Sequence record: MK962753.1
From: Shigella phage JK32
DNA length: 64,000 nt
Reading direction: 5' to 3' (one strand)
The notes beneath the pieces were generated by a model. That model ran no database searches. It saw nothing but the letters and a program-made list of their open reading frames with translations, and had not been told where the DNA came from. Made by a program: the position numbers and the translations under genes. Every line of letters starts with the position of its first letter. Position 1 is the first letter of the stretch. Below, piece by piece: positions 8,107 through 29,533 of the stretch.

Positions 8107-8687
8107 GCGTTAAATGACTTTTGGATCTCTTTCAGTTCAGCTACTTTATCGGCGCTGAATTTAGCGTAGGTATCATGTCGAATAATTTCACTTTCAAGAA
8201 AGGTTTCCAGACGAGATCTATTTTCAATAAGGAACTCTTTCAGGTCTTCCGCGTTCTTGATAAAGATTTTATTGTCGGTAATGTCATCTTCAATCGCAAA
8301 GGAGATAGAGCGAACTTTACCAAACAAGTTAATCAGATCTTCCAGAGATTCTTCTTTCTTAACTGGTTTCATTTCTTCAAACTGCTTTTTAGTGATTCGT
8401 TTAAAGTATTTGCGCTCGCTTGCATCAATCATGATTGACGCGCCCTCATAATCATGAGTTTCTACCAAATACACTTTACCCATAACATTAACCGTCAGAA
8501 CTTTAAAGCCCTTGTGAAGCACACCATACAGGAACTTGTTATGTTGTGGATAGCGTTTAACAAATTCCTCTGCGGACTCAGCATTACGGAAAGTGTAATA
8601 ACGACCTCGTTCAAAAACAGCATCATTTGAAGACTTAGCCGGATACAATTTATACGTTTTCTGTACCATAATATAATCCTCTATCAT
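8103..8687 (-). CDS. Hypothetical protein, repeat family
   Basis: KYFKRITKKQFEEM motif; overlaps upstream ORF by 4 nt. Confidence 0.6.
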   Translation of the reverse strand: MIEDYIMVQKTYKLYPAKSSNDAVFERGRYYTFRNAESAEEFVKRYPQHNKFLYGVLHKGFKVLTVNVMGKVYLVETHDYEGASIMIDASERKYFKRITKKQFEEMKPVKKEESLEDLINLFGKVRSISFAIEDDITDNKIFIKNAEDLKEFLIENRSRLETFLESEIIRHDTYAKFSADKVAELKEIQKSFNA

Positions 8688-8956
8688 TTCACTAATTGAA
8701 CAGCACGAAACAGAATGCGGTCACACGGAAGCAGCATAAATTCCCAACGCGGTTCAAAGTCTTTAGCGGTATATGTTTTCCCATCAACCGAGATTTCACT
8801 TACATAACCAATAGGTGACACTTTAAGAACAGTAAATCCATTCTTGATGACTTCGTAGGTATCTTTCAATCCGTCGTAGTCATCCTCTAGGAAGTCTTTA
8901 CGTGCTTGCTCAGATTTAAAAACATAGGCCACACCGGATTTAAACATCTTACGCAT
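8684..8956 (-). CDS. Hypothetical protein, single repeat-domain member
   Basis: MRKMFKSGVAYVFKSEQARKDF resembles N-terminus of ORF 159-659; start placed after GGAGAATCAA leader. Confidence 0.55.
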   Translation of the reverse strand: MRKMFKSGVAYVFKSEQARKDFLEDDYDGLKDTYEVIKNGFTVLKVSPIGYVSEISVDGKTYTAKDFEPRWEFMLLPCDRILFRAVQLVK

Positions 8957-8987
8957 TGTTGATTCTCCTTCTTGATTAGATGGGAGT

Positions 8988-9016
8988 ATTTTATTACTCC
9001 CATTTCTTATTGTCAA
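8988..9016 (-). promoter_or_regulatory. Sigma70-type early promoter (TTGACA-17-TAAAAT)
   Basis: Reverse strand TTGACA ataagaaatgggagtaa TAAAAT. Confidence 0.5.
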
Positions 9017-9019
9017 CTA

Positions 9020-9493
9020 CTATCTTAATCTTTGTATAAATTGTTTCTTATACTTCTTCGTGATCTCTTCTCTTGTATCCGCGTCGCAGTAATCGAAACC
9101 TTCTGCGTCCATAATAGCAACCATCTCCGCGCGTGTCAAGCGTGAAAATCGTTTTACTTTATCAACAGCATATTGAGGATGTAAATGATTGTTGGTGTAG
9201 TCTCCTTTGATGTAATTAACATAGTTTGTAGCCCAAACAACGAAATCAGCACCTAAAGCACCAACACCAAACCGTTTAAAGTCTCCAGTCAACGATCCTT
9301 CTAGGCGGTTGCAACACGAATGAAGCAATCCCCTTACGCGGCCTTGCCCTTTCCCATCTAGATCGTGGTCGTGGTCAAGATGGTTTTTGCTCATATCCTC
9401 AAAAAGTGGCAATTGACAAAGGGGGCAATTGCCCCCCTGTTTTTCGAATAGTTCTTGTTTGTACTCTTTAGCACTCTTAGCAGTCAGTAACAT
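9020..9493 (-). CDS. 49: Recombination endonuclease VII (Holliday junction resolvase)
   Basis: MLLTAKSAKEYKQ...NHLDHDHDLDG...VRGLLHSCCN matches recalled T4 endo VII; start taken at MLLT after a GGAGGG Shine-Dalgarno. Confidence 0.85.
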   Translation of the reverse strand: MLLTAKSAKEYKQELFEKQGGNCPLCQLPLFEDMSKNHLDHDHDLDGKGQGRVRGLLHSCCNRLEGSLTGDFKRFGVGALGADFVVWATNYVNYIKGDYTNNHLHPQYAVDKVKRFSRLTRAEMVAIMDAEGFDYCDADTREEITKKYKKQFIQRLR

Positions 9494-23575: not shown

Positions 23576-23914
23576 TTATTCTCCTTTCTTAAACAAATTG
23601 CGAAGCCAGTATACAAACGGGATTTCTTTAAACTTGAACTTGTCAATAGTTAATTCTTTAGTAGCAAGATGAATACCATAAGCATCATGTGTCACGATAT
23701 GCCATTTTCTATAGTCCAAATGTGAACAACCGTCTGAATCTAGGTTAATAATAGTTTCTCGCTCACTAGGATTGTTTTTCCACAATTTTGTAATCGGATC
23801 ACACATAATTCGACCTAGCGTACCATGAATAATCTCACAACGGTAAAGTTTTCCGGCAGTGATATAGGCACACCCGTCATAGTCGGTATAAACAAACACT
23901 TCTTTAACACTCAT
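23576..23914 (-). CDS. Hypothetical protein, member of a tandem triplet paralogue family
   Basis: ITAGKLYRCE...DSDGCSHLDYRKWHIV pattern shared with next two ORFs. Confidence 0.5.
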   Translation of the reverse strand: MSVKEVFVYTDYDGCAYITAGKLYRCEIIHGTLGRIMCDPITKLWKNNPSERETIINLDSDGCSHLDYRKWHIVTHDAYGIHLATKELTIDKFKFKEIPFVYWLRNLFKKGE

Positions 23915-23975: not shown

Positions 23976-24236
23976 CTACTTTTTCAAGAATTTTTTAATT
24001 GCGTTCCAAAGACCTTTATTCTCAGGCTGTTTTGGTTCTTCGATCAGTGTCCACGGACGGTCGTCAAGATATGCACAGCTTTTCAGAGAAATAAAAAGTT
24101 TGTATCCTTTATCATCTTTGATGTAACCGTAGGTAGACATTCTTTCATCTGGCGTAAACTTATACAGTTTATTTGGGGTGATGTAAGATCTACTACTATA
24201 AGGTGTCATTACATATTTCATGGTACTAACTCCCAT
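23976..24236 (-). CDS. Hypothetical protein, triplet paralogue
   Basis: ITPNKLYKFTP...GYIKDDKGYKLFISL. Confidence 0.5.
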   Translation of the reverse strand: MGVSTMKYVMTPYSSRSYITPNKLYKFTPDERMSTYGYIKDDKGYKLFISLKSCAYLDDRPWTLIEEPKQPENKGLWNAIKKFLKK

Positions 24237-24412
24237 TTATCACCGCGAAGATGAGAACATCCACCATCAAGAAGGATCGTAATACGAAACCCCGCATCAT
24301 CTTCAATATACCCGATAGTCGGTGGATGTTCGTCGTCTCGTGCCGGGGTAAAATCATACATCTTACCAGGCGTAATATCTTGTCCTTTATTGCTATTGGT
24401 ATAAACTTGCAT
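24218..24412 (-). CDS. Hypothetical protein, triplet paralogue
   Basis: ITPGKMYDFTP...GYIEDDAGFRITILLDGGCSHL. Confidence 0.5.
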   Translation of the reverse strand: MQVYTNSNKGQDITPGKMYDFTPARDDEHPPTIGYIEDDAGFRITILLDGGCSHLRGDKWELVP

Positions 24413-24433: not shown

Positions 24434-25132
24434 CTAACCACGGGTATAGTGTTCCAGAACAACTGTCAGATGAATATATTCTAATAGATCTTTCCAAAAG
24501 TCAACATCTGGTTCTTCCGGCATACCGTTTTTCTTTGCCTCTTCACGCGCGAGTTTAACACGTTCGTAGAGATCTTTCAATTCTTCCCGCACATTATCAA
24601 ATGTTCTTTCTCCTAACTTACACGCTAAAATAGAAGAACGTCGCGCGAGCGGGAATTGTAGATCACCAGTTTGATAGATTTCAAGTAGCTGATAACCAAC
24701 ACGCAGAGCATGAGAAAGATCTTTCCAGTTACTGAAATATTTTTCAGATTTGACTACCTGCTTTTTGAGATAACCAGACAAACCCCACATACCAACATGA
24801 TAGAATTTATCGCGATGTGTTCGGATGTATTCCCATTCTCTGGAGGATTCAATCAACATGTTACTAGGCGCGTGCACCATATCAATAGCGCCGATATCAC
24901 CTTTACATGCCAGATTGATAAACCGTTTTAGACTGAACATATTAACATCAATATCGTCTTTGGTGTTCTTGATACCTTGACCGCTAGTGCTTTGGTCATA
25001 GTGTTCTTTCATCGATCCTAAGATAATTTCTTTCGCAGTCGGAACAAAGATACCACGATAATCTTTATCTGAATTTTCAGTATCAAGACCGTATAAGTGA
25101 GATCCGAAGACCATTTTAACCATTGTATGCAT
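24434..25132 (-). CDS. Predicted nucleotidyltransferase (Pol-beta superfamily)
   Basis: FGSHLYGLDTENSDKDYRGIF fits GS-x(9-13)-DxD signature. Confidence 0.6.
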   Translation of the reverse strand: MHTMVKMVFGSHLYGLDTENSDKDYRGIFVPTAKEIILGSMKEHYDQSTSGQGIKNTKDDIDVNMFSLKRFINLACKGDIGAIDMVHAPSNMLIESSREWEYIRTHRDKFYHVGMWGLSGYLKKQVVKSEKYFSNWKDLSHALRVGYQLLEIYQTGDLQFPLARRSSILACKLGERTFDNVREELKDLYERVKLAREEAKKNGMPEEPDVDFWKDLLEYIHLTVVLEHYTRG

Positions 25133-25150
25133 AATTAAACCCTCATGTTA

Positions 25151-25744
25151 TTAAACGTATTCAGCAACAACATTATGTTTAAAATTACCGCTCATTTTTG
25201 GATTTGGATTTTTCAATCGACTATGTATTAAATTTTTGTTGTATCCGGTTGCTTTAGACGCTTCGCCAATACTTTGATAAACAACACCATTAACACGAAT
25301 CGGACGAGACTTATTAAACAGTTTATTCAATCCGGCATCATATGCATGGTTTTGGTTTTCTTGTCTCGTTGCGATCTCAAGATTCCAAACACAATTACAA
25401 GATTTTACCCCACTTTTATGATTAATTTCAAGCCCTTCACAATCACCTATAAAGTGTTCAGCGACTAGTCTATGAATATAGCGATATTTCTTAGTTTCCC
25501 CGTCATGCAAGCATACATTATAATAACCATCACCAGCGCGTTTAGGTCGGAGTAGTTTACCTTTAACACGTTTTATAGTAGGGAACTCACCAAATTGATT
25601 TCGCTGGACAAACGAAATCTCGCGGTCTAATGAACGGATTCGACCATAGTTAGACACTTGATAAAAACTTTCATAGCCTTTAATTGGCTTCCATATCTCA
25701 GGGATTTCTACACCATCAATAACAACAAGTTTAAATTCTTCCAT
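25151..25744 (-). CDS. HNH homing endonuclease (NUMOD4 + HNH)
   Basis: YQVSNYGRIRS (NUMOD4-like); HRLVAEHF ... INHKSG ... NLEIATRQEN (HNH). Confidence 0.75.
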   Translation of the reverse strand: MEEFKLVVIDGVEIPEIWKPIKGYESFYQVSNYGRIRSLDREISFVQRNQFGEFPTIKRVKGKLLRPKRAGDGYYNVCLHDGETKKYRYIHRLVAEHFIGDCEGLEINHKSGVKSCNCVWNLEIATRQENQNHAYDAGLNKLFNKSRPIRVNGVVYQSIGEASKATGYNKNLIHSRLKNPNPKMSGNFKHNVVAEYV

Positions 25745-25756
25745 ATTTCACCTCAT

Positions 25757-25789
25757 AAAAAAATAAAGCCAACCCTTTCGGATTGGCTT
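25757..25789 (-). terminator. Rho-independent terminator after grcA-like gene
   Basis: Hairpin agccaaccctttcggattggct with flanking A/T runs. Confidence 0.55.
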
Positions 25790-26891: not shown

Positions 26892-27467
26892 TTATTTTGG
26901 ATCTGGGAAATTCAATAGAGCATATTCTCCATAAAATTTCCTAGCTGCATTATCATAAGCGATTGCAGCTTCGATTTCTGTGTCATATTGTCCAAGAACA
27001 TGTCTTTGTAGGTTGACCATTATACTAGCTCTCCATTTCTTACGCAAATCCTTCCTGTTACACTTACTAACACCCTTATACACACTAGAAAACTTTTTAG
27101 ACTTCTTCTTTCTATTATGTTGATTTTGCGCGTCGGTTGCCTCCCTAAGATTTGGAGGATTGTTATTAGCAGGATTACCGTCAATATGATCAATTAATCT
27201 AACTTGCGTCCCATGTTCTAGAAACCAAACAACCCTATGCACGAATAGATGAACTCTAGGAAGACCGTCATCTCTACTATGCCAAAATCTAAGATGACCA
27301 TCTTTATTTGTTCTGACTTTAACTAAATCGCCGTGTTTATATCTACTCCCTAATGGTCGTCCTTTGATAGCTTTACTATCGACTCTATAATATAAGATAC
27401 CCTCTATATGAGCATATCTAAGTTTTATCTCGTTTTGTAGGGATTCATCCCAATATTTAAAGGTCAT
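26892..27467 (-). CDS. HNH homing endonuclease with AP2-type DNA-binding domain
   Basis: IDHIDGNPANNNPPNLREAT...NQHN (HNH); C-terminal YKGVS...WRASI...AAIAYDNAA (AP2-like). Confidence 0.75.
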   Translation of the reverse strand: MTFKYWDESLQNEIKLRYAHIEGILYYRVDSKAIKGRPLGSRYKHGDLVKVRTNKDGHLRFWHSRDDGLPRVHLFVHRVVWFLEHGTQVRLIDHIDGNPANNNPPNLREATDAQNQHNRKKKSKKFSSVYKGVSKCNRKDLRKKWRASIMVNLQRHVLGQYDTEIEAAIAYDNAARKFYGEYALLNFPDPK

Positions 27468-28123: not shown

Positions 28124-28390
28124 TTATTTTCCTTTTCTCTGTTTACGTTTATAAAAGTAATACATTACCTCATCGCGTCCGGTGATCCAACATGCTAGGG
28201 CAGTAAACAGGTTTACAATTCCCAACACACCTACGGATGCGGCGCTGTCAACAGACATAGGAACAGTAAAGGCCATAGCTAACATAGCAACGCCACAAAT
28301 GACATTAAGCACCATTATAATAAGACCGAAGAAAACCATTGTCAATCCTCCCAAATAAGAAAACCAACAATCACGCCAGTGATAAGACAT
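28124..28390 (-). CDS. Small membrane protein
   Basis: Hydrophobic, basic C-terminus. Confidence 0.45.
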   Translation of the reverse strand: MSYHWRDCWFSYLGGLTMVFFGLIIMVLNVICGVAMLAMAFTVPMSVDSAASVGVLGIVNLFTALACWITGRDEVMYYFYKRKQRKGK

Positions 28391-28533
28391 GATGCACCAC
28401 TAATCAGACAACCCGCGCCAAGCGATTCCCACCAGATCAGGGAAGCGACAATAACACCGAATCCCCAGACTACCGCAATCACAACATAGGCAAAGATCGC
28501 CCAAAACATATATTTGTTCATAATAAACCCCAT
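28342..28533 (-). CDS. Small membrane protein
   Basis: Two TM helices. Confidence 0.4.
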   Translation of the reverse strand: MGFIMNKYMFWAIFAYVVIAVVWGFGVIVASLIWWESLGAGCLISGASCLITGVIVGFLIWED

Positions 28534-28706
28534 TCACCAAACAAATAAGAAAAAAGCCATATCAACAGAAACGAGGCAATTGATCCGGCAAGCAAAATGA
28601 TATTAGAGAATCCGCTGTTTATCCAGTCGATCAAACAGAATACACCAGTATAGAAGCATAATCCCATTACAAAGCATACTATAAGCAACCATAGATAAAA
28701 CGCCAT
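28518..28706 (-). CDS. Small membrane protein (5' end lies inside the duplicated segment)
   Basis: MAFYLWLLIVCFVMGLCFYTG...; start codon copy repeated at 28970-28972. Confidence 0.45.
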   Translation of the reverse strand: MAFYLWLLIVCFVMGLCFYTGVFCLIDWINSGFSNIILLAGSIASFLLIWLFSYLFGEWGLL

Positions 28707-29123
28707 AGAAAGCCCTCTAGTGAGCTAATTTAGTGCGGGTAGTACATTACCCTACCCGCATTGTTAATCATCGCAGAGCGTGTTCTAGAACGATTCCACA
28801 CCAACCGCTAACCACACCCAAACACACAGCAACAAGCAGATTCATTCGGTCTTTTGAGCAAAATGATATTAGAGAATCCGCTGTTTATCCAGTCGATCAA
28901 ACAGAATACACCAGTATAGAAGCATAATCCCATTACAAAGCATACTATAAGCAACCATAGATAAAACGCCATAGAAAGCCCTCTAGTGAGCTAATTTAGT
29001 GCGGGTAGTACATTACCCTACCCGCATTGTTAATCATCGCAGAGCGTGTTCTAGAACGATTCCACACCAACCGCTAACCACACCCAAACACACAGCAACA
29101 AGCAGATTCATTCGGTCTTTTGG
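28592..29123. repeat. Perfect tandem direct duplication, 2 x 266 bp
   Basis: 28592-28857 reads identically to 28858-29123 by eye; contains hairpin gcgggtag/ctacccgc. Confidence 0.85.
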
Positions 29124-29194
29124 AATCATCGCAAACAGAACAACACCCACACAGAAAGCCATCACCATTGAAGTTAACATTTGTTCAACCATTA

Positions 29195-29533
29195 TCACAC
29201 CTTTAAAGTCATAGACGCATAAACATTAATGCCAGGCCAGTTAGGATCGCAATTATACTCAACATCCCACAAATAAAGCGGTTTAGATGTATCAGCCAAG
29301 TTTTTAAAATCTTCTACCCACATTTCAATGCTATATGATGGATAAACTAGGCTGTCATATCCTCCGTAACGTTGGCCTACTGGTCGGTCAGTAAAAACTA
29401 CCTCAAGATCCGGTAATTCTTTTTCAAGGATAACCGCCAGCGCATAAATCAGACGGTCTTCCTTGTTACGCTGCCGAAGGACCGTTGTCAGTTGGTTTTT
29501 CTGGTTCACTAGCAAGCACCTCCACATTTTCAC
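29195..29533 (-). CDS. Hypothetical protein; start uncertain
   Basis: ORF track. Confidence 0.4.
   Translation of the reverse strand: MKMWRCLLVNQKNQLTTVLRQRNKEDRLIYALAVILEKELPDLEVVFTDRPVGQRYGGYDSLVYPSYSIEMWVEDFKNLADTSKPLYLWDVEYNCDPNWPGINVYASMTLKV

Follow-up and report, generated by a model that had tools for sequence, protein, structure and literature searches.

The nrdC.11 gene of phage JK32

We analysed a 64,000-nt stretch of DNA from Shigella phage JK32 (MK962753.1; hereafter the window). An ORF on its minus strand, which starts with ATG and is preceded by a Shine-Dalgarno-like sequence, encodes a 232-aa protein (Table 1). Both the ORF and the GS...DxD peptide within it lie exactly where the original prediction had placed them. 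Sequence comparison identifies the gene as the Krischvirus ortholog of T4 nrdC.11. In a BLASTP comparison with T4 NrdC.11 the protein gave E=1e-50 and ~47% identity over the aligned residues, and over both domains its closest similarity is to the T4 NrdC.11 group. Pfam assigns it to RlaP (PF10127, "RNA repair pathway DNA polymerase beta family") with 52.9 bits against a gathering cut-off of 23 (E=5.6e-14); residues 7-191 match profile positions 24-198 of 249, and RlaP is the sole Pfam family found at E<=1. The protein also matches PHROG 388, 'nucleotidyltransferase' (E=1e-78). Searches with the same protein returned zero family matches from NCBIfam and nothing meaningful from PADLOC.

Table 1. 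Features of the nrdC.11 locus in the JK32 window.
Feature	Position	Strand	Basis or remark
nrdC.11 ortholog, RlaP-family (PF10127) Pol-beta nucleotidyltransferase, 232 aa	24434..25132	(-)	ORF, stop codon included
Shine-Dalgarno-like GAGGG (ribosome-binding site)	25140..25144	(-)	7 nt 5' of ATG, read from sequence
hG[GS]...DxD motif, residues 9-29 (FGSHLYGLDTENSDKDYRGIF): G10, S11, D22, D24	25046..25108	(-)	Alignments
NTKDDIDV, residues 56-63, with third catalytic carboxylate D62	24944..24967	(-)	D62 at beta-strand start; alignment and model
N-terminal minimal NTase alpha/beta domain, residues 1-96	24845..25132	(-)	AF2 model
C-terminal all-helical (HEPN/KNTase-C-like) domain, residues 98-230, with invariant K137 and R144	24443..24841	(-)	
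Junction S129-N135, where T4 and most relatives have ~100 extra residues	24728..24748	(-)	Alignment gaps
Free-standing NUMOD4+HNH_3 homing endonuclease, directly upstream and separate from the enzyme	25151..25744	(-)	Pfam
Terminator-like hairpin between vs.6 and the HNH/nrdC.11 pair	25766..25789	(-)	Consensus scan: 10-bp stem and T-run; pattern match only
vs.6 / GrcA-like 'autonomous glycyl radical cofactor', stand-alone, 137 aa	25795-26208	(-)	Pfam Gly_radical
HNH_3+AP2 endonuclease	26892..27467	(-)	Pfam

Relatives of the protein are abundant, with 3,553 retrieved at E<=1e-3 from 1.84 billion representative proteins. At the DNA level the gene region is 94-96% identical to 58 genomes of Krischvirus, the T4-type coliphages that include RB49, JSE and phi1, and the window belongs to this group. 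A protein at least 95% identical is found in 58 Krischvirus records. Phage UPWr_E1 encodes a 100% identical protein. The JSE protein is 99% identical, differing at 2 of 232 residues, and its gene carries the RefSeq name "nrdC.11, nucleotidyltransferase"; the RefSeq product of T4 nrdC.11 is also 'nucleotidyltransferase' (NP_049709). Because 14 of the 16 codons that differ from JSE are synonymous and 2 are non-synonymous, the comparison indicates that nrdC.11 is under purifying selection. The original prediction had placed the gene in an 'accessory region'. This description fits to the extent that a T4 deletion of nrdC.11-mobD.3 still grows under laboratory conditions (PMC9825161), but nrdC.11 counts among the ORFs that T4-like phages conserve (PMC1524935), and a relative spanning at least 80% of the 232-aa protein occurs in 1,558 phage records.

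[quoted passage not shown] 2006, PMC1524935). The gene is already known, in that it is named in RefSeq, an identical protein has been deposited and a predicted role has been published. It was reportedly placed in the RlaP family in 2016. Because the nucleotidyltransferase has been recognised since 2006 and the RlaP membership since 2016, and because the gene has its RefSeq name, the discovery value of the assignment is small. Many GenBank phage records label nrdC.11 'thioredoxin' or 'glutaredoxin', and one labels it 'putative HNH homing endonuclease'. Since Pfam finds the RlaP domain alone, the thioredoxin and glutaredoxin labels apparently reflect spread of the name from nrdC, and we flag this as a widespread mis-annotation in deposited phage genomes.

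Catalytic site, fold and short form

We aligned the protein with 17 close relatives (alignment A1); alignment A2 added Bacillaceae homologues and four canonical bacterial RlaPs. These RlaPs share 13-16% identity with the query, and one scores 221 bits on the Pfam RlaP model. Residues G10, S11, D22, D24, D59, D60, D62 and D84 are invariant in A1. G10, S11, G15, S21, D22, D62, K137 and R144 are invariant in A2, where D24 and D60 are conserved at >=90%, and G10, S11, D22 and D24 are all invariant in alignment A3. On these alignments G10, S11, D22, D24 and D62 are the hG[GS]...DxD...D set of Pol-beta nucleotidyltransferases, and the catalytic elements that mark an RlaP (hG[GS], DxD and a strictly conserved third Asp) are all present. 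In A2 the second catalytic Asp is replaced by Asn in P0142, a short-form relative of 258 aa (SDTNY versus SDxDY), which may be an inactive or altered variant.

An AF2 model built from an 18-sequence alignment (pLDDT 89.6, pTM 0.86) places strands at residues 2-9, 24-30, 44-48, 62-67 and 93-96, which together with helices give the Pol-beta topology. In the PfRlaP crystal structure, an NTase domain and a helical domain form a cleft, and the C-terminal helix packs back on the NTase (PMC12776372). For the 232-aa protein, AF2 secondary structure alone gives alpha/beta residues 1-96 and then helices over 98-230. A Foldseek search of the PDB was headed by ANT(4')/KNTase and the Hailong NTase HalB (E ~1e-4, TM ~0.4), and LinB, AAD(9), MNT and HEPN chains were also among the nearest solved folds. 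This likeness to solved structures is at the level of the fold (Z <=9.4, TM ~0.4, identity 7-14%), and searches of the PDB by sequence and by profile gave spurious matches only and no relative of the protein. Like the JK32 protein, ANT(4') and HalB consist of a minimal Pol-beta NTase followed by a helical domain, with the DxD equivalently placed. They have no family-level sequence match to it, however, and they carry out other reactions, the acceptor being an aminoglycoside for ANT and the activity of HalB being de novo oligo-dA synthesis.

The original prediction had called the protein a Pol-beta-type nucleotidyltransferase and had named catalytic Asp residues that are not conserved on alignment as the finding that would speak against the call. 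That objection fails, because G10-S11, D22, D24 and D62 are conserved even in comparison with RlaPs of only ~13% identity. The call itself is borne out by the family HMM match, by conservation of GS...DxD and the third Asp in deep alignments, and by the AF2 model, which is confident and finds its closest solved structures exclusively among Pol-beta NTases that have a helical C-terminal domain. We consider it very probable that the 232-aa protein is an active RlaP-type nucleotidyltransferase.

T4 NrdC.11 shares the catalytic and helical-domain invariant residues with the JK32 protein. However, it is 336 aa long, and the pairwise alignment contains a gap of ~106 residues; the 16 long forms in the alignment leave a gap in the same way. 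The T4-type insert is modelled as a folded alpha/beta module (residues ~135-235), and this ~100-aa insertion, which in the orthologous group separates the NTase-proximal helices from the WK..SHA.R helix, is absent from the JK32 protein. Among the 150 best representatives from the 1.84 billion proteins searched, most have 300-350 aa and align in two separate stretches; lengths of 231-258 aa occur in just a handful. The Pfam match of T4-type proteins ends at profile position 142, at the start of the extra segment, whereas short forms match in a single continuous stretch (positions 23-229 for P0002 and those given above for the JK32 protein). Measured against the RlaP family consensus, the extra segment is therefore an insertion, and the architecture of the short form is the canonical one. 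When the T4-type model was used as the query in fold searches, the hits were again NTases and HEPN chains, and none of them identified the insert module.

Neighbour-joining trees were built on shared columns and rooted with Bacillaceae and planctomycete homologues. The JK32-type protein and P0002, which is 57% identical, were nested inside the long forms in 100/100 bootstraps, and the short protein P0152 was placed elsewhere in the tree. Because short forms are nested within long forms, secondary loss is the most economical reading; the trees suggest that the module was lost more than once, although neighbour joining and the choice of root are weak for this question. The metagenomic contig that encodes P0002 has the same gene order (endolysin, vs.8, vs.6, NUMOD4-HNH, RlaP), and the short form is therefore stable in a wider Krischvirus-like lineage. 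The module loss in Krischvirus is a modest variant and not a discovery, but because the JK32 protein is missing a ~100-aa module found in nearly all close relatives, its substrate range may differ from theirs.

Genomic neighbourhood and RNA-repair partners

JK32 nrdC.11 sits between the vs.6 glycyl-radical gene and regB, inside the vs/regB cluster, where it is surrounded by RNA-metabolism genes (regB, vs and the tk.4 macro domain). In contrast, T4 nrdC.11 sits between mobD and nrdC.10, and this distal position in the nrdC cluster is not matched in JK32. The homing endonuclease genes that the original prediction had noted beside the ORF are indeed there, and Pfam identifies two of them (Table 1). 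In both JK32 and T4, nrdC.11 follows immediately on the gene of a free-standing HNH homing endonuclease, but the JK32 upstream endonuclease is unrelated to MobD. The same slot is occupied by mobD in T4 and by an HNH protein of only 28% identity in JSE, and some Krischvirus genomes have no endonuclease there; the slot looks like a recurrent homing target beside a conserved gene. For comparison, the slot extends over positions 8148-8678 in locus L001 and 8430-9209 in locus L087. A mobile mobD-nrdC.11 cassette was considered and rejected, as the upstream HNH protein is not MobD (E=0.044) and the JSE endonuclease in the slot has so little identity to it.

Directly downstream of nrdC.11 are three tandem, paralogous small ORFs, all on the minus strand, at 24218-24412, 23976-24236 and 23576-23914. 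They encode proteins of 64, 86 and 112 aa (pairwise BLASTP E=3e-13 and 9e-6) with the common pattern GK(L/M)Y ... C(S/A)(H/Y)L ... W; their families are PHROGs 6261 and 15978, neither of which has a known function. Because a promoter scan found 20 sites against 17.2 expected from shuffles, with no enrichment, we do not claim a promoter. Elsewhere in the window, a perfect (100%) tandem duplication of 266 nt occupies positions 28591-28856 and 28857-29122 and copies the first part of a small membrane-protein ORF (28518-28706 and 28808-28972). The 1101-nt stretch that contains it (28300-29400) corresponds to 835 nt, with a single copy, in JSE, G5211, phiS and other relatives, and the duplication is therefore either private to the JK32 genome or an assembly artefact.

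No tRNA genes were found in the 64-kb window, and no RNA ligase or polynucleotide kinase lies beside nrdC.11 in it. JSE encodes both pseT (Pnk) and rnlA (Rnl1), ~78 kb from nrdC.11; rnlB (Rnl2) is not annotated at the T4-equivalent position in that phage. With tblastn at >=95% identity, NrdC.11, RnlA and PseT were each found in 58 records, which are the same Krischvirus set, and this set includes UPWr_E1 and pEJ01, the closest relatives of the window. Because its closest relatives carry both genes, JK32 itself can be taken with near certainty to encode the two classical tRNA-repair enzymes of T4.

We also collected 80 bacterial loci encoding relatives of the protein, clustered the flanking ORFs and confirmed their families by Pfam. 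Near the NrdC.11-like gene, RtcB was found in 8 of the 80 loci, Ro60 (TROVE + vWA) in 6, a second, canonical RlaP in 11 (immediately downstream in 9), a CCA/poly(A)-polymerase-type enzyme in 4 and an HD-domain protein in 5, and only 24 of the 80 loci have any of these recurrent neighbour families. Arrays of Ro60, RtcB, an NrdC.11-like gene and RlaP are present in four loci (L031, L032, L033 and L037). The published association with RNA repair is thus reproduced for the NrdC.11 branch specifically. In L010, L026, L031-L033, L037, L046, L072 and L073 a long-form NrdC.11-type gene is followed at once by a canonical RlaP, often behind Ro60 and RtcB. Operons with two different RlaP paralogues suggest that the two have divided, or non-redundant, roles. 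Distant homologues in mycobacteriophage JoeDirt and Bacillus phage BMBsp2 have no RNA-repair neighbours.

Predicted role in tRNA repair

The biochemistry of RlaP comes from two Pseudomonas enzymes described in a December 2025 preprint (PMC12776372). These enzymes extend an RNA 3'-OH by one or two NMPs or dNMPs, prefer Mn2+ and are inactive on DNA and protein (PMC12776372). On a tRNA mimic they act on the nicked anticodon end in preference to the acceptor end, and in total E. coli RNA they label rRNA, full-length tRNA and tRNA fragments with any NTP (PMC12776372). RlaP partly restores aminoacylation of a tRNA without one anticodon-loop nucleotide; because addition is untemplated and shows little NTP specificity, most repaired tRNAs would carry a wrong base, as the authors themselves remark (PMC12776372). 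RlaP has been proposed as an antidote to "smart" ribotoxins such as RloC (PMC12776372), a nuclease that excises the wobble nucleotide and that its discoverers predicted would defeat phage repair by Pnk and Rnl1 (PMC2610378). In jumbo phages, RlaP has been predicted to restore lost nucleotides before ligation (Iyer et al. 2021, PMC7824862).

The JK32 protein resembles the bacterial RlaPs of P. fluorescens and P. aeruginosa, which are encoded in RtcB-RlaP-RtcA operons (PMC12776372), in its Pfam family, its canonical length, its GS/DxD/D set, the Lys and Arg of the helical domain and, in the AF2 model, the order of an NTase followed by a helical domain. It differs in sequence (~13% identity to the canonical bacterial RlaPs aligned here) and in that its gene is not in a ligase operon. 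A further difference concerns the ligase. RtcB requires a 3'-phosphate, a mismatch with the RlaP product that the authors concede (PMC12776372), whereas the phage partner would be Rnl1, a 5'-P/3'-OH ligase that matches this product directly. The end chemistry is coherent in the phage setting, because Pnk yields the 3'-OH that RlaP needs and the 3'-OH of the RlaP product can be sealed directly by Rnl1.

Because of this coherent end chemistry, and because of the published predictions for RloC and RlaP, we adopt gap-filling in tRNA repair against nucleotide-excising nucleases such as RloC as the role of NrdC.11, a reading to which we give slightly better than an even chance and which we infer from RlaP family biochemistry and genomic context. 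In the predicted pathway, a host anticodon nuclease would cut a tRNA, and "smart" ones such as RloC would also trim the wobble nucleotide. Pnk (pseT) would then turn the 2',3'-cyclic or 3'-phosphate into a 3'-OH and phosphorylate the 5' end, NrdC.11 would refill the missing nucleotide or nucleotides, and Rnl1 (rnlA) would seal the break. Within NrdC.11, D22, D24 and D62 would hold two divalent metal ions, probably Mn2+, that activate the 3'-OH of an RNA bound in the cleft between the NTase and helical domains, and in an untemplated reaction the enzyme would transfer one or two NMPs, drawn from NTPs. The original prediction had guessed at a nucleic-acid target and a part in counter-defence. Vague as it was, this guess agrees with the RNA 3'-OH extension in RNA repair presumed for the family, which for the phage protein would be an extrapolation. 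However, some findings speak against the repair role. The gene is not adjacent to an RNA ligase, with pseT and rnlA ~78 kb off in JSE, and the characterised RlaPs belong to a different sequence cluster, canonical bacterial RlaPs being ~13% identical to the JK32 protein. In the published SSN, T4 NrdC.11 falls in RlaP cluster 5 and the characterised enzymes in cluster 1a (PMC12776372). Also weighing against the repair role are the laboratory viability of the T4 deletion, the lack of RNA-repair neighbours around the JoeDirt and BMBsp2 homologues, the wrong bases expected from untemplated addition, the missing ~100-aa module and the restriction of the recurrent neighbour families to 24 of the 80 bacterial loci.

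The same chemistry could serve RNA 3'-end tailing, in which, for example, short non-templated tails single out host or phage RNAs to be degraded or stabilised, or the 3' ends of tRNAs are touched up. Such a role would suit the broad labelling of rRNA, full-length tRNA and fragments with any NTP, as well as a gene that lies among regB, vs and the tk.4 macro domain and not beside a ligase. We nevertheless consider tailing unlikely, as RlaPs in vitro prefer the nicked-anticodon end to the acceptor end, their stop after one or two nucleotides suits gap filling better, and bacterial relatives cluster with the RtcB and Ro60 repair genes. CCA-adding enzymes and the poly(A) polymerase head (PF01743) are likewise template-independent Pol-beta NTases acting on RNA 3' ends, but the JK32 protein is much smaller, has no PF01743 match and lacks the body, neck and tail domains with which a CCA-adding enzyme measures out CCA. 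Nucleotidylation of a small molecule or protein, in the manner of aminoglycoside and lincosamide NTases, or AMPylation that silences HEPN RNase toxins as by an MNT antitoxin, is brought to mind by the HEPN-like C-terminal domain and by the closest solved folds, which include ANT(4')/KNTase, LinB, AAD(9), MNT and HEPN chains. This is very unlikely given that the likeness is confined to the fold (TM ~0.4), that Pfam gives RlaP alone and not NTP_transf_2 or KNTase_C, that searches of the PDB with the sequence or a profile detect no related chain, and that the RlaPs studied left E. coli proteins unlabelled. As for an MNT-HEPN toxin-antitoxin pair, NTase and helical domain are here parts of one protein, and its gene has no HEPN toxin gene next to it.

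Synthesis of free short oligonucleotides, like the oligodeoxyadenylate of Hailong HalB, could provide a decoy or signal that interferes with host defence. HalB (9dbh) shares only 12% identity with the JK32 protein over 141 residues and went undetected by sequence or profile. No HalA partner is found among the neighbours (an HNH endonuclease and small ORFs of PHROGs of unknown function), and there was no match to a PADLOC defence family, although PADLOC 2023 may predate Hailong. With family biochemistry consisting of RNA 3'-OH primer extension and not de novo synthesis, and with RNA repair as the bacterial context, we regard HalB-like synthesis as extremely unlikely. It is just as improbable that nrdC.11 is a decaying remnant, an enzyme inactivated by loss of the ~100-aa module whose ORF persists without function. 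The insert is indeed absent relative to T4 and most relatives, and the short form is nested in the long forms in all bootstraps of the neighbour-joining trees. Yet all catalytic and helical-domain invariant residues are kept, synonymous codon differences from JSE far outnumber non-synonymous ones, 58 genomes and the 57%-identical P0002 retain the short form, and a single continuous Pfam stretch and a confident AF2 fold give it the canonical RlaP architecture. Decay is the best excluded of the rivals because of these intact catalytic residues, the purifying selection, the conservation in 58 genomes and the canonical architecture. A broader departure from the gap-filling role would be that NrdC.11-type proteins are a functionally distinct RlaP branch whose Krischvirus copy, stripped of its module and perhaps changed in recognition, has a non-repair function as a HalB-like oligonucleotide maker or a tailing enzyme that disarms host defence; we think this very doubtful.

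Under the gap-filling role, nrdC.11 bears on a question that dates from 2008, namely whether phages can reverse the 'unrepairable' lesion left by wobble-excising nucleases such as RloC. As a naturally minimal NrdC.11 in a phage with Pnk and Rnl1, the JK32 enzyme would be a convenient test protein for the question of the RloC lesion.
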